A stretch of 4,318 nucleotides of DNA from a virus (taxonomy: Duplodnaviria > Heunggongvirae > Uroviricota > Caudoviricetes). The notes under the pieces are model-generated. The model was not told the DNA's origin, made no database searches, and was given only the letters and a program-made list of their open reading frames with translations. The position numbers were made by a program, and so were the translations under genes. Positions 47 to 4,318 of this stretch are shown here, one piece after another. Positions within the stretch are counted from its first letter, which is position 1. Each line of letters starts with the position of its first letter. The DNA lies in IMG/VR virus record IMGVR_UViG_2671180906_000008, one strand, 5' to 3'.

Positions 47-69
47 TGTGCCACTTCACTATAGGGACC
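47..69 (+). promoter_or_regulatory. T7-group single-subunit RNA polymerase promoter-like sequence, predicted +1 at G64
   Basis: tgtgccacttCACTATAGGGAcc: positions 56-67 match the T7 promoter -8..+4 core TCACTATAGGGA 12/12; upstream -17..-9 differs from T7. Same orientation as all downstream genes. Only occurrence in the window. Confidence 0.4.
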
Positions 70-120
70 ATATCTCGCCTCTGACCTCCTGAGAGACGGC
101 AAGCGAGAAACCGTGGTCCA
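64..120 (+). other. Predicted 5' leader stem-loop at the putative transcript start
   Basis: GGACCA (65-70) pairs with TGGTCC (114-119); TCTCGC (73-78) pairs with GCGAGA (103-108); CTCT (79-82) pairs with AGAG (92-95). Nested helices begin right after the predicted +1. Confidence 0.3.
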
Positions 121-383
121 CGCTAGCAAGCTAGCCACCAGCCTAAGGCAAGACAGCCTCTGGTCAGCCTGTGTGTTCTTTGGTCTCGTGACTTAAGTCT
201 ATCACCACACACGCTCGGACATGCTGTCGAACCTTCATCTCTATGGTCATCGCAGACCACTAACCCCAATTACCTCAAGTCATTCTGTTTGCGTCCTGTT
301 GCCTGCTGGTCTCCCTTTACGTGGGGGCTTGAGTAGGTCAGTGGGGTGCGACTTCAGGGTGCAAACAAAAGGAGTACACGTAA

Positions 384-1130
384 ATGTCCCAACAAGAAAT
401 CAGCATCATTAACCTCGACCAGCTTGTGTCCATGACCTCAGTTGAAATTGCTGAGCTGACAGGAAAAGAACATAAACACGTTTTACGAGATATTCGTAAT
501 ATGGTCGAAGAGCTTAACGGGGCCAAAACTGAGCACTGCTCAACTTTGAGCAGCGAGCTTAACGGGTCCAAATTTGGGCTCGTTGGCGAGGAAGTATACA
601 AGGACGCGAAAGGTGAGAGCCGAACAATGTATCGTCTCGACCGTAAGCATACTTTCATTCTGGTCGCTGGCTATTCCGTTCACCTCCGCGCCAAGTGTTA
701 CGACCATATTCAGACGTTAGAGCGTCGAGTCCTTCAACTGGAAGACCAGAAGAAGCGAGCAGCCATTCAGTCCGCTAACCGCCGAGGCGTGACTTGGGGC
801 GACTACTGCAAAACCTATGGTCTGCCCGCTCAGAAGCTAATGACCGCACTTCTCCAGCATCGTGGCCTCTTTCGTAAGAACCCAATCAGTAACGAGTGGT
901 CTGTAAATCCGAAGTATTCCGACTGCTTTCGTATCATTAAGCCGTCAGACCAGAAGTTCTCAGCAGGTGGGTATAACTTCCGGTTCAACGCTAAGGGGCT
1001 GGAGGTCTTCGGTAAGCCTGAGATGGTTGACAAGATGCGAGGCATCCTTATTGCATTCACTGGCACCGACCAGCAGAAGCAAGAGCACCTCCTGAAGCTG
1101 GCACAATCCGGTAAGGTGGAGGGAATCTAA
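384..1130 (+). CDS. Rha-family phage regulatory protein (pRha/ORF6N-like N-terminal domain), 248 aa
   Basis: ATG 384 preceded by AAGGAG (369-374) at 9-nt spacing. N-terminal ...TSVEIAELTGKEHKHVLRDIRNM... then ...MYRLDRKHTFILVAGYSVHLRAKCYDHI... matches the Rha/antirepressor N-domain pattern as I recall it. Long uninterrupted ORF. Family call not searched. Confidence 0.65.
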   Translation: MSQQEISIINLDQLVSMTSVEIAELTGKEHKHVLRDIRNMVEELNGAKTEHCSTLSSELNGSKFGLVGEEVYKDAKGESRTMYRLDRKHTFILVAGYSVHLRAKCYDHIQTLERRVLQLEDQKKRAAIQSANRRGVTWGDYCKTYGLPAQKLMTALLQHRGLFRKNPISNEWSVNPKYSDCFRIIKPSDQKFSAGGYNFRFNAKGLEVFGKPEMVDKMRGILIAFTGTDQQKQEHLLKLAQSGKVEGI

Positions 1131-1131
1131 G

Positions 1132-1308
1132 ATGATGATTGACCCGCGCACACCTGAGGGGCGCATGACTCTCCGTTACCGTGGCTACCGGACTGAAGTC
1201 CTCCTCAGAGAGCTTGGTCTAGACCCGGAAGATGAGACCCGCCAGCACCAATCCCGAGACGAGCTAATAGCCCAACTGGTCGCTATGAAACTGCCGCTTA
1301 ACCGTTAG
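1132..1308 (+). CDS. Hypothetical small protein, 58 aa, translationally coupled to upstream gene; not in supplied ORF track
   Basis: ATG 1132 lies 1 nt after the TAA (1128-1130) of the upstream ORF. GGAGG at 1118-1122 gives 9-nt spacing. Reads MMIDPRTPEGRMTLRYRGYRTEVLLRELGLDPEDETRQHQSRDELIAQLVAMKLPLNR to TAG 1306-1308. Codon usage like neighbours. Confidence 0.5.
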   Translation: MMIDPRTPEGRMTLRYRGYRTEVLLRELGLDPEDETRQHQSRDELIAQLVAMKLPLNR

Positions 1309-1427
1309 TAGCTCACCTACTCAATACCTAATTTAAACACCTTTTGAGATGACCGATGCGGGGAGACCCGTAGGCCTTACTGTGCCTGCGATACCGATAG
1401 TCTCAACTCTCAAGAGGAGAATTACCT

Positions 1428-1978
1428 ATGATGTTCAACAACAACNNNNNNNNNNNNNNNNNNNNNNNNNNNNNNNNNNNNNNNNNNNNNNNNNNNNNNN
1501 NNNNNNNNNNNNNNNNNNNNNNNNNNNNNNNNNNNNNNNNNNNNNNNNNNNNNNNNNNNNNNNNNNNTCCTATCCGTTGTCGCTCGCTATCAAGACCCTC
1601 ATTCCGGGCTACCTGTCAGGCTTACCGTCCACCAGCCGCGAGGCGATGGAGTTACTGGAAGCTCTGGCTGAAGCTGGCGTGACCATTGGTAACTTCTTCA
1701 GTAATGACCTGATGACCGCCTACCAACGCCGCCAGATGAACAAACGAGCTGAAGCTGAGCGTATCGCTAAAGAGCTAGCGTCTCAGAAAGAGCGTACCCG
1801 CGAAATGTTCATGACCGAAGACGAATGGCAAAAAGAGCTACAGCGCCGCGAACAGGTCAAAGCTGAACGCCGGACCTATGGTGAAAACCTCCGCAGCGCT
1901 ACTCATTCCGCTGGTCGCTCACGTGCCGCTATCGTCGCTGACCTTGAGTCAGGCGGTAACTGGATGGACAGCTTGTAA
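1428..1978 (+). CDS. Hypothetical protein with charged, coiled-coil-like C-terminal half; interrupted by assembly gap, reading frame across gap unknown
   Basis: GAGGAG (1414-1419) 8 nt before ATG 1428 (MMFNNN...). After the gap an open frame runs to TAA 1976-1978 (…AEAERIAKELASQKERTREMFMTEDEWQKELQRREQVKAERR…). The 1349 start in the ORF track has no ribosome-binding site and is probably an artefact of the gap. Confidence 0.5.
1446..1567. other. Assembly gap (122 N)
   Basis: Run of N characters. Length is not a multiple of 3, so it is probably a placeholder size. Confidence 0.99.
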
Positions 1979-2061
1979 GCAAGCGTCCCTCATCTGAGAA
2001 CACACGGTCCCTGACTGCCTGTTAGGGACTTCAAGTATTTGACTCAAGGAGATTAATTATA

Positions 2062-3051
2062 ATGAATATGACTAAAAACGCTTTCCAGTTTGGCATTGAG
2101 CCAGTACGCATCACCGATACCGACAACATTCAGGTCAATGAAGGTCTGCCGACTAACGCCGACCCTCAGGTCTATGCCCTCCAGTTAGCTAAGACTGTTA
2201 AGGCTATGCTGAACGGTGTACTTAAAGACGCTCAAGATAACATCCCGTTCCCTGTAGAAGTCCTGCCGACCCGTAACAGCTTACCGACTCCAATCATTGC
2301 TCACACTCTGGCTGACCGCTCTGTGCTGGTCCCTGTCCGTGGTGGTAAGCGACCTGAAGTTGTGACCGCTCCGTCTGGCACTGAAATCACCGTTGAGCCG
2401 ATTGAACAGGCGATCCTCGTGTCTCACCAAACAAAGCTTTGGGACCAGAAGTCGACCACTGGTTTCACTCAGGGGACGCTCCAGCAGGACGCACTGAACA
2501 TCTGCGATAACGTGATTCGTACCATTAACTCTAAGATGGTTGACGTGCTGGAGTCCTCAAAGCTGCTGAAGACCGTAGAACTTCCGGCCCTGACTGGTAG
2601 CCTGACCGCTAAGGCTGACGCTATCATGGATGCCCTGTACGAGAACACGGAGTCTTCTTTCGGTTCTGAGGTTTCTGACTACGGCATTATCGCCCATGAG
2701 TCACACCTCAAGGCTCTCTCCCGTCTGGCTGCTAAGCAGGGCTTCGGTGGTGAAGACGCTATCGTCGATATGCTGGGGACTGACGTCGCCTATTACAACG
2801 GTGAAGACCGTGGCGTGTTCATGATGGCTAAGCGTTTTACGGCTCTGAGCTTCGGTTGCTTCCGTCACGATGGCGAGAGCATTACTGTGGTCCTTTCACG
2901 TGATGGAGACTCCCAGTCTCACGACCTTGAGATTCTCGGCAAGGTGTTTGTTGTAGCTGAAGCTGCTACGACCATCAAGATGGGTACTGGCTCGGCTACT
3001 GCTGTCCTGCCTGTAGTCAAACGCCTGAGCTTCACTAAAGAAGCTAACTAA
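2062..3051 (+). CDS. Hypothetical protein, 329 aa, likely highly expressed; possible virion structural protein by context only
   Basis: AAGGAGA (2046-2052) 10 nt before ATG 2062. Strong major-codon bias (cgt, ggt, gct, ctg, ccg, aac, ttc, tac). Hairpin plus T-tract terminator immediately downstream. No family recognised by eye. Confidence 0.8.
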   Translation: MNMTKNAFQFGIEPVRITDTDNIQVNEGLPTNADPQVYALQLAKTVKAMLNGVLKDAQDNIPFPVEVLPTRNSLPTPIIAHTLADRSVLVPVRGGKRPEVVTAPSGTEITVEPIEQAILVSHQTKLWDQKSTTGFTQGTLQQDALNICDNVIRTINSKMVDVLESSKLLKTVELPALTGSLTAKADAIMDALYENTESSFGSEVSDYGIIAHESHLKALSRLAAKQGFGGEDAIVDMLGTDVAYYNGEDRGVFMMAKRFTALSFGCFRHDGESITVVLSRDGDSQSHDLEILGKVFVVAEAATTIKMGTGSATAVLPVVKRLSFTKEAN

Positions 3052-3065
3052 CAATAACGACTATT

Positions 3066-3102
3066 GGTCAGACTTCCGAACTGGATGTCTGGCCTTTATT
3101 TT
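3066..3102 (+). terminator. Intrinsic (factor-independent) terminator downstream of the 329-aa ORF
   Basis: GGTCAGAC (3066-3073) pairs with GTCTGGCC (3087-3094) with one G.U pair; inner TCC/GGA pairs extend the stem; 5-nt loop gaact; followed by TTTATTTT (3095-3102). Starts 15 nt after the stop codon. Confidence 0.6.
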
Positions 3103-3146
3103 GTACTAGTAATCTAGTTTGTGAATACAGAAAGTAGGAGGGCCAA

Positions 3147-3221
3147 ATGGACCTACACAAAGTCTATCTCGTGGTCTTCCTGCTAAAGCTGGGACTGGTG
3201 GTCTGGCTATGGGCTATTAGA
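3147..3221 (+). CDS. Very short ORF (24 codons) behind a consensus ribosome-binding site; possibly a truncated gene start or leader peptide
   Basis: AGGAGG (3136-3141) 5 nt before ATG 3147. Reads MDLHKVYLVVFPAKAGTGGLAMGY then TAG 3219-3221. Too short to call a protein confidently. Confidence 0.2.
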
Positions 3222-3724
3222 CGATGAGTTTTGACTGAAAAATGTGAGACCTCATCTAATATAAAGAGCGAGCCAAAAGCCCCCATAGCCTGACCTGAGC
3301 CAGACCAAAAGGGCCGGGTAGTCAGACCGTGAGTTCTATTCCTTTAGAGGGAATATTACGTGCTTCAAGTCTTGACCTTCTATCTCTAAATGTGTGACTA
3401 TCACTACAACCAACTGGATTCACCTGTCTTTAAGAAACAATAGGTTAGCTGGTTGTCTTCGATTTGTCGTAGGCTCCCTTCGCCCGCTCCAATTTATCTT
3501 CACCTGATCAATCTGCCATTTTTGCTGTATCTGATTTTCTATATTATCTTAATTCAATCACTTCAGGCTTTTCGCAATCGCTGTAACACTTCCCCATTTT
3601 TTTGTAAATAAAAAGCGTTTACGCAATGCAATCCTTTTGTAACAACTCAGGTAAAATACCTTATTTTCAAGTTGTTGAATAAGTGGTTATCTACGCTTTT
3701 AACAAACGATTGATGGATTATTTT

Positions 3725-4276
3725 ATGAAAGGGAAATCTGCATTAACTCTTCTGCTCGCTGGTATATTTTCGTGCGGCACATGCCAGGCGACAGAGGCAG
3801 AAGTGACAAGCGAATCTGTATTTAACATTCTTAATTCCAGGGGGGCAGCAACAGATAAAAGTTATTTATCGTTAAATCCAGATAAGTATCCTAATTATCG
3901 TCTTCTGATTCACTCAGCCAAATTAAAAAATGAAATAAAGAGTCACTATACCAAAGACGAAACTCAAGGATTGCTAACATTAACAGAAAACACACGAAAG
4001 TTAACGTTGACGGAGAAACCCTGGGGAACGTTTATTCTTGCTTCTACTTTCGAAGATGACAAAACAGCGGCAGAAACCCACTATGATGCTGTCTGGCTGA
4101 GGGATAGTTTATGGGGCTATATGGCATTAGTATCAGACCAAGGAAATAGTGTAGCCGCAAAAAAGGTTCTGCTCACCCTGTGGGGTTATATGTCTACGCC
4201 CGACCAGATTAAGCGGATGCAGGACATCATTAGCAACCCAAAACGACTGGATGGAATTCTGATCCTACCCACGTAA
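3725..4276 (+). CDS. Secreted protein with N-terminal signal peptide and a GH15-like (glucoamylase/trehalase-type) WxRDS motif; ends at an in-frame TAA, possibly truncated or a pseudogene
   Basis: ATG 3725 gives MKGKSALTLLLAGIFSCGTCQA|TEAE, a classic n-h-c signal peptide. In-frame alternative starts at GTG 3683 and ATG 3713. AVWLRDSLWGYMAL at 4088-4129 resembles the GH15 WTRDS region. Visibly AT-richer with different codon usage than 384-3051. Frame stays open after the stop to the window end. Confidence 0.55.
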   Translation: MKGKSALTLLLAGIFSCGTCQATEAEVTSESVFNILNSRGAATDKSYLSLNPDKYPNYRLLIHSAKLKNEIKSHYTKDETQGLLTLTENTRKLTLTEKPWGTFILASTFEDDKTAAETHYDAVWLRDSLWGYMALVSDQGNSVAAKKVLLTLWGYMSTPDQIKRMQDIISNPKRLDGILILPT

Positions 4277-4318
4277 TATGGACACAGGCCTAAGCGAGGT
4301 TCTGGTTTTCAAATTGTT

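Follow-up and report, generated by a model that had tools for sequence, protein, structure and literature searches.

The stretch of DNA analysed here, called the window, is 4,318 nucleotides long and comes from IMG/VR virus record IMGVR_UViG_2671180906_000008 (Caudoviricetes). It is bracketed by two IS3-family elements, IS911 on the left and IS3 on the right; between them lie part of an island integrated in the tRNA gene glyU and a fragment of the gene ygeQ, denoted ygeQ'. In a scan of species-representative genomes, two chromosomes, CP182556 ('Shigella flexneri SFBU1023', locus L003) and CP178302 ('E. coli ECMA0423', locus L004), agree with the window at every base (100% identity) of 1-1445 and 1568-4318. 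The features on which the argument depends are the following:

1-52: terminus of IS911 (IS3 family), whose copy in L003 lies at about 5140-6396 and interrupts the island
3475-3491, plus strand: attR, a 17-bp copy of the glyU 3' end (TCCCTTCGCCCGCTCCA), exact match, 0 expected by chance
3492-3724, plus strand: native glyU-ygeQ intergenic region, AT-rich (31% GC), collinear with the glyU-ygeQ DNA of BL21(DE3)
3683-4276, plus strand: ORF of 197 amino acids counted from GTG
3725-4259, plus strand: ygeQ', 5' fragment of a GH15-family gene, codons 1-178 and the first base of codon 179
3725-3790, plus strand: predicted signal peptide, residues 1-22 (MKGKSALTLLLAGIFSCGTCQA), read from the sequence
4094-4117, plus strand: WLRDSLWG motif, residues 124-131, containing the family-invariant W-x-R-D-S
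4260-4318, minus strand: terminal 59 bp (right end) of IS3, with the transposase on the minus strand; the window ends within the element
4274-4276, plus strand: TAA ending the chimeric ORF, located 15 bp into the terminal inverted repeat of IS3, from translation and alignment

A sequence-only reading of this region had described a secreted GH15-like protein cut short by an in-frame stop, and the ORF, the WLRDSLWG motif, the TAA at 4274-4276 and the frame that stays open to the window end all lie where it placed them. It gave the product from the ATG at 3725 as 184 residues; both codons lie where stated; the length includes the stop codon, translation yielding 183 amino acids. A second in-frame ATG, at 3713, is the RefSeq start for the ygeQ pseudogene, and either codon may be the true start of ygeQ'. 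The leader shows a basic n-region, then a hydrophobic core and C-Q-A. Its lipobox, IFSC, is atypical; it may be a lipoprotein signal with Cys17. The K-12 gene is annotated as 'putative lipoprotein YgeQ'. The lipobox is not conserved across the family: some homologues possess one, some have a plain signal peptide, and the Gram-positive members have neither. The region 3492-3724 presumably holds the ygeQ promoter and leader; a simple promoter scan detects no sigma-70 consensus on the plus strand upstream of ygeQ, and the window has no Rfam match at the gathering threshold. The GC content is 42% in the stub, 31% upstream of it, and 51% in the neighbouring island.

Megablast of window 3300-4318 against 5,426 complete E. 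coli genomes assigns 3725-4259 to E. coli genes named ygeQ or 'glycoside hydrolase family 15 protein', with 97.2-97.7% identity. The last base homologous to the intact gene (L002:6425-8035, 536 amino acids) is 4259. The intact gene of strain GCEC19 has 1611 bp and encodes a 536-residue protein (WP_000676929; EC042_3075 in EAEC 042). Residues 1-178 of this orthologue are 96% identical to the window product and include the same signal peptide and WLRDSLWG, but the orthologue comprises a full (alpha/alpha)6 barrel as well as the WEE and LPES motifs, while the window encodes the first third of it. The view that the product is too short for a barrel and stems from a truncated pseudogene was thus well founded, as intact alleles have 536 codons and the window has codons 1-178. 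A database search returns 252 homologues of about 490-608 amino acids, shorter entries being partial, and none ends naturally at the position of the window's stop. Their hosts include Escherichia albertii, Yersinia, Commensalibacter, Elusimicrobiota, Clostridiales, and Bifidobacterium, among others.

The guess of a GH15-type family, made from WLRDSLWG, was correct, and the motif is no chance resemblance: W124, R126, and D127 are invariant in an alignment of 39 of the 252 homologues, extending down to 37% identity. Also invariant in these 39 sequences are W208, H210, Q212-A215, W267-E268-E269, and E491 (in LPES). The WTRDS of GH15 region 1 is a substrate-binding segment to which WLRDSLWG corresponds, and WLRDSLWG aligns with 'AWVRDNVY' of the GH15-like domain of phosphorylase kinase alpha. 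Residues 208-217 of the intact proteins, W-(N/T)-H-K-Q-N-D-A-L-G, align with QWGHLQLDAT of the same protein. Profile searches, which the sequence-only reading had proposed, give a borderline match for the intact protein and none for the stub. The former reaches 22.6 bits against PF00723, a borderline score for a cutoff of 22 (E = 5.9e-5, residues 94-401), and among NCBIfam models gives only a sub-threshold match, to the oligosaccharide amylase TIGR01577. The 183-residue stub does not match any model of Pfam (even at E <= 1), NCBIfam, or PHROGs.

An AF2 model of the intact orthologue, built from the family alignment, has a mean pLDDT of 89.9 and a pTM of 0.90 and displays the (alpha/alpha)6 barrel. 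Its top Foldseek hits in the PDB are the D1 glucoamylase-like domains of phosphorylase kinase beta and alpha, followed by the GH15 isomaltose glucohydrolase (5z3a, 7c24), glucoamylases (1ayx, 1gah, 3eqa), and a GH15 dextran dextrinase; the top list, which also includes 9ju0, covers E values from 8e-10 to 5e-5, with moderate TM-scores of about 0.5 on the query and 0.7 on the target. The GH15 enzymes and the phosphorylase kinase D1 domains resemble intact YgeQ in fold and in the three motif regions, yet share only 11-18% identity with it. Because PF00723 is just passed, the confident model resembles GH15 folds, and the WxRDS, WEE, and LPES motifs are invariant, the intact alleles belong to a GH15 (glucoamylase-like) family. 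Searches of PDB sequences with the single protein or the 39-sequence profile retrieve only phosphorylase kinase alpha and beta and no classical GH15 enzyme; of the solved structures, these kinase subunits come nearest in sequence as well as in fold. Intact YgeQ might represent a presumably exported bacterial GH15 subfamily closer to the regulatory alpha/beta subunits of animal phosphorylase kinase than to any characterised glucoamylase. The relation of the family to phosphorylase kinase had already been raised, according to the passage of PMC2808357 that cites Pallen 2003.

In GH15 enzymes, the general acid is the glutamate of a W-E-E motif and the general base lies near the C-terminus. By this layout, E268 and E491 would form the catalytic pair of intact YgeQ, E491 being the putative general base from its motif position only. 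E268 aligns, in the profile alignment, with Glu185 of phosphorylase kinase alpha, one of 'the two Glu that participate in catalysis' (PMC10978961). Our literature search found no biochemical data on YgeQ or EC042_3075. The stub ends at residue 178, past roughly the first three to four barrel helices (H112-176 in the model), and both glutamates lie beyond the truncation. Since it lacks both of them and retains few barrel helices, it cannot be an active glycosidase.

The truncation coincides with the start of an insertion sequence. IS3 is a 1258-bp element with terminal inverted repeats beginning TG… and with orfA and orfB joined by a programmed -1 frameshift. All 59 bases of window 4260-4318 agree with the termini of full-length, 1258-bp IS3 elements from L001 (strain H2), L003, and BL21, and E. 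coli genomes contain more than 13,000 instances of this 59-bp terminal sequence. The copies of H2 and BL21(DE3) are annotated as 'IS3-like element IS3 family transposase, programmed frameshift'; that of L003 is 1258 bp long, 99.9% identical to the annotated H2 element, and carries ORFs of 102 and 288 amino acids on the minus strand between imperfect terminal repeats (28/40 positions). After 4259, the intact gene reads CCGGGCAAATGAATG (…DGV-PGQMNVVHIRF…) while the window reads TGATCCTACCCACGTAATATGGACACAGG. Codon 179 is accordingly a hybrid, its C coming from ygeQ and its TG from IS3, and is followed by four IS3 codons; the last five residues of the ORF, LILPT, are the product of the junction codon and of IS3.

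These data bear directly on the cause of the interruption. The sequence-only reading had rightly considered a pseudogene, along with either a nonsense point mutation or a miscalled base at 4274 in an otherwise continuous GH15 gene. The frame is indeed open from 4277 to the window end, reading YGHRPKRGSGFQIV up to base 4318, and this segment is loosely reminiscent of the GH15 GRPQRDG motif. However, it is IS3 DNA from 4260 onward, unrelated to the CCGGGCAAATGAATG (PGQMN…) of the intact gene; the TAA is part of the element, and any likeness to GRPQRDG is fortuitous. The genuine counterpart of that motif in the family, WNHKQNDALG, stands at residues 208-217, a part of the protein absent from the window, and the junction recurs in 318 complete genomes. 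A nonsense mutation or base-calling error can therefore be given practically no credence, and simple decay is not the cause either.

Extending the sequence past 4318, as had been suggested, leads in L003 and L004 through a complete IS3 to yqeG, yqeF, and kduI, with the ygeQ remainder absent. A tblastn search with the 536-residue protein recovers only residues 1-178 in the 20-kb loci (10 kb on each side) of L003, L004, H2, and BL21. A simple IS3 insertion is flanked by a 3-bp target-site duplication. The bases flanking IS3 are TTC…TAG in H2 and BL21 and TTC…AAA in L003, hence no duplication in any of the three. This absence is no argument against the identity of the element; it indicates that IS3 adjoins a deletion or rearrangement and is not a simple insertion. 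Were the insertion simple, TTC and CCGGGCAAATG would follow IS3, the ygeQ remainder and the ETT2 type III secretion cluster would lie intact some 1.26 kb further on, and precise excision could restore the gene. IS3-family insertions that leave both halves of ygeQ in place do exist elsewhere in the gene, in strains 1585m1 and HS, and the window, ending inside IS3, does not itself display the sequence beyond. Against this, IS3 is followed by yqeG-side DNA in the two window-identical genomes, in H2, and in BL21, where neither a target-site duplication nor the 3' part of ygeQ is found, which makes a simple insertion very unlikely. The presence of yqeG-side DNA immediately after IS3 in the window-identical genomes indicates that the remainder of ygeQ and ETT2 were deleted. 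The deletion is observed in L003 and L004, the two genomes in which 63 real bases take the place of the window's 122 N, and it would apply to the window itself; IS3 presumably mediated it.

The same ygeQ::IS3 junction is found in 318 of the 5,426 complete E. coli genomes (about 6%), as determined with an 89-bp probe for which at least 80% coverage was demanded, a value attainable only across the junction. About 2,969 genomes contain at least 80% of ygeQ. The carriers of the junction include REL606, BL21(DE3), C41/C43, and strain C, and RefSeq labels the site as a ygeQ pseudogene, 'incomplete; missing C-terminus', beside IS3. This distribution, together with the lengths of the homologues, is relevant to two further ideas: that the ORF encodes a naturally short secreted protein of 183 residues, or that the window is an assembly chimera formed at a repeat. 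The window is bounded by IS ends (IS911 at 1-52, IS3 at 4260-4318), as is typical of short-read assemblies broken at repeats, and it does look like a contig broken in this way. The homologues, though, are about 490-608 residues long and the stub is not recognised by Pfam or NCBIfam, while a junction present in hundreds of closed genomes is no assembly artefact; both ideas are vanishingly improbable.

The E. coli B strains BL21(DE3) and REL606 provide the closest parallel to the IS3-truncated stub, with the order glyU, ygeQ', IS3, a hypothetical gene, and yqeG. Their pseudogene has the identical breakpoint (…GGA(G/A)TTC|TGATCCTACCC…) and the same IS3 orientation, the 3' part of ygeQ is lost, and ETT2 is missing, as it is from the window-identical genomes. 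Differences are nevertheless visible: 17 of the 178 codons differ between the window and BL21 stubs, with 7 amino-acid changes; the far-side endpoint of the deletion is about 440 bp further on in L003/L004 than in BL21; and the window lineage harbours between glyU and ygeQ an island of about 7.6 kb, interrupted by IS911, that BL21 does not have. In K-12 MG1655 (ygeQ, b2863; ygeP, b2862; IS2H), the same gene at the same locus beside glyU is likewise degraded, but by another lesion: a 264-residue ORF is followed by a ygeP fragment and then by IS2, instead of IS3 at codon 179.

Where the locus is more complete, the native surroundings of ygeQ are apparent. In GCEC19, 1585m1, and HS, it is directly followed by the genes of SpaN/EivJ (a fragment in GCEC19), YscQ, EscR, EscS, SctT, and EscU, and in strains without the island tRNA-Gly(CCC) glyU is immediately upstream. 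Low in G+C and contiguous with the eiv/epa secretion genes, ygeQ is thus the outermost, glyU-proximal member of ETT2, whose location adjoining glyU has been described (PMC11068852; PMC2808357). The 17-mer TCCCTTCGCCCGCTCCA ends the glyU gene in BL21, K-12, HS, and L005-L007. In L004 it occurs twice, as attL and attR, 7.6 kb apart, while in BL21 the whole glyU tRNA precedes the same downstream sequence. The copy at 3475-3491 is the boundary between the upstream island and the native ygeQ-flanking DNA, and window 53-3474 is part of an integrative island in glyU. As ygeQ neighbours this island solely by virtue of the integration into glyU, it is not one of its accessory genes, and the proposal of a polysaccharide-degrading accessory of a phage-like module falls: that module is the independent glyU island, set off by attR.

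The island itself exhibits several features of its own. T7-type single-subunit RNA polymerase promoter motifs, AACTATCACTATAGGG(G)A, lie on its gene strand between an integrase/defence gene and a Rha gene, at window 53-75, L001:2208-2223, 2238-2253, and 2797-2812, and L003:4570-4584; we take this motif to be the K1F-type promoter used in orthogonal T7 RNA polymerase work. Strain H2 has three copies, a number reached in 0 of 200 shuffles. In the window copy, at 53-75, the upstream part has been removed by IS911 and one nucleotide is deleted. A 41-nt probe across one copy finds matches in 221 T7-like phages (Kayfunavirus, EcoDS1, CR44b, and others), whose genomes measure about 39-40 kb and have about 7 such sites each, some of them annotated 'promoter'. 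The motifs suggest that the polymerase of an infecting Kayfunavirus may switch on the island genes, with the island acting as a satellite or a defence trigger; no description of a phage-polymerase-triggered glyU island was found in the literature.

In H2, outside the window, a DUF4145 gene (L001:1545-2207) overlaps the island integrase. It is the anti-T7 defence gene PD-T7-4 (PADLOC PDLC04109, E = 3e-101), homologues of which 'often overlap an integrase gene' (discovery preprint). The corresponding slot in the window lineage, L003:3925-4344, is occupied by unrelated DNA with a 139-residue ORF, and the position looks like a variable cargo slot.

Further downstream, window 2062-3051 encodes a protein of 329 amino acids, preceded at 1428-1978 by one of 163, the charged C-terminal half of which is possibly a coiled coil. 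Neither matches Pfam, PHROG, or PADLOC entries, and tblastn of the 329-residue protein against 50,697 phage records gives no match; its homologues, at identities of at least 70%, are confined to Enterobacterales (E. coli, Shigella, Citrobacter koseri, and Rouxiella), and its AF2 model, with a pLDDT of 34.6, is too poor to use. Homologues of the two genes also occur as a pair elsewhere: at least one further locus has them at another position in the chromosome, close to ynfA-like genes. Contigs of 6.4-7.3 kb with homologues of the 329-residue protein were considered as excised elements and rejected: they are ordinary chromosomal fragments carrying the island at another site.

The run of N at 1446-1567 stands in place of the sequence …AACAACAAC AACTGGAAGCTG…GGTCAG TCCTAT… of L003/L004. 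Being of another length, the run puts the frame out: with the real bases in place, a single 163-residue ORF extends from the ATG at 1428 to 1978, so that the two ORFs listed at 1349-1978 and 1428-1682 are one. Just past the stop of the 329-residue gene, window 3066-3105 contains a hairpin with a T-run behind it (GGTCAGAC…GTCTGGCC TTTATTTTG), read by eye and not listed by the consensus scan; it looks like a putative intrinsic terminator closing the block from Rha to the 329-residue gene.

At the left end of the island, the glyU copy of L003 (2072-2147) is degenerate relative to that of BL21: its anticodon loop has 8 nt (ARAGORN 'tRNA-???', anticodon cctg), the D-loop carries an insertion, and the acceptor stem contains mismatches. 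L004 has no tRNA call at this place, although the 17-bp att core is present. The yqeG gene of L003 is also fragmented (92.8% identity, 29 gaps). This degeneracy of glyU and yqeG could be real decay or assembly error.

The window diverges by 2.4-8% from most E. coli sequences. Sequencing error was rejected as the source of this divergence: third codon positions account for 60 of the 88 changes in the neighbouring 329-residue gene, and the window is matched exactly by two assemblies made independently. The 11 transitions against 3 transversions within the stub likewise speak for real divergence. The stub differs from an intact allele at 14 codons, 7 of them with amino-acid changes; its changes are spread evenly over codon positions, a pattern expected under relaxed constraint. 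Stubs sharing the junction differ from one another by about 3%, with 10 synonymous against 6-7 non-synonymous changes, small numbers in either case. This synonymous excess is not what a long-dead pseudogene alone would show; recombination is its probable cause.

Taken together, ygeQ' is almost certainly the 5' stub of ygeQ, a pseudogene cut by IS3, the end of which supplies its stop codon. IS3 is joined to ygeQ after nucleotide 535; reading enters the terminal inverted repeat at codon 179 and meets the TAA of the element five codons on. In the history proposed here, a deletion associated with IS3 would have taken codons 179-536 together with the ETT2 cluster. What the 183-residue product retains is the signal peptide, a beta-rich N-terminal segment, a few barrel helices at the start of the domain, and WxRDS, and it is probably functionless. 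Because of its leader, of the identical junction in about 6% of genomes, and of the predominance of synonymous over non-synonymous changes between carriers, there is a slim chance that the stub is alive, being expressed as a small exported protein that still binds carbohydrate or has some other role, in which case the mature part after the predicted signal or lipoprotein leader would comprise 156-161 residues.

Where a contig ends in a frame that stays open beyond an in-frame stop, comparison with IS termini should come first. The mutational attrition of ETT2 is well documented, and ygeQ' is one of its many forms. The ygeQ::IS3 pseudogene is already known, widespread, and ordinary; as one of many IS lesions of ETT2 that are already annotated, for example in BL21(DE3), it matters little.
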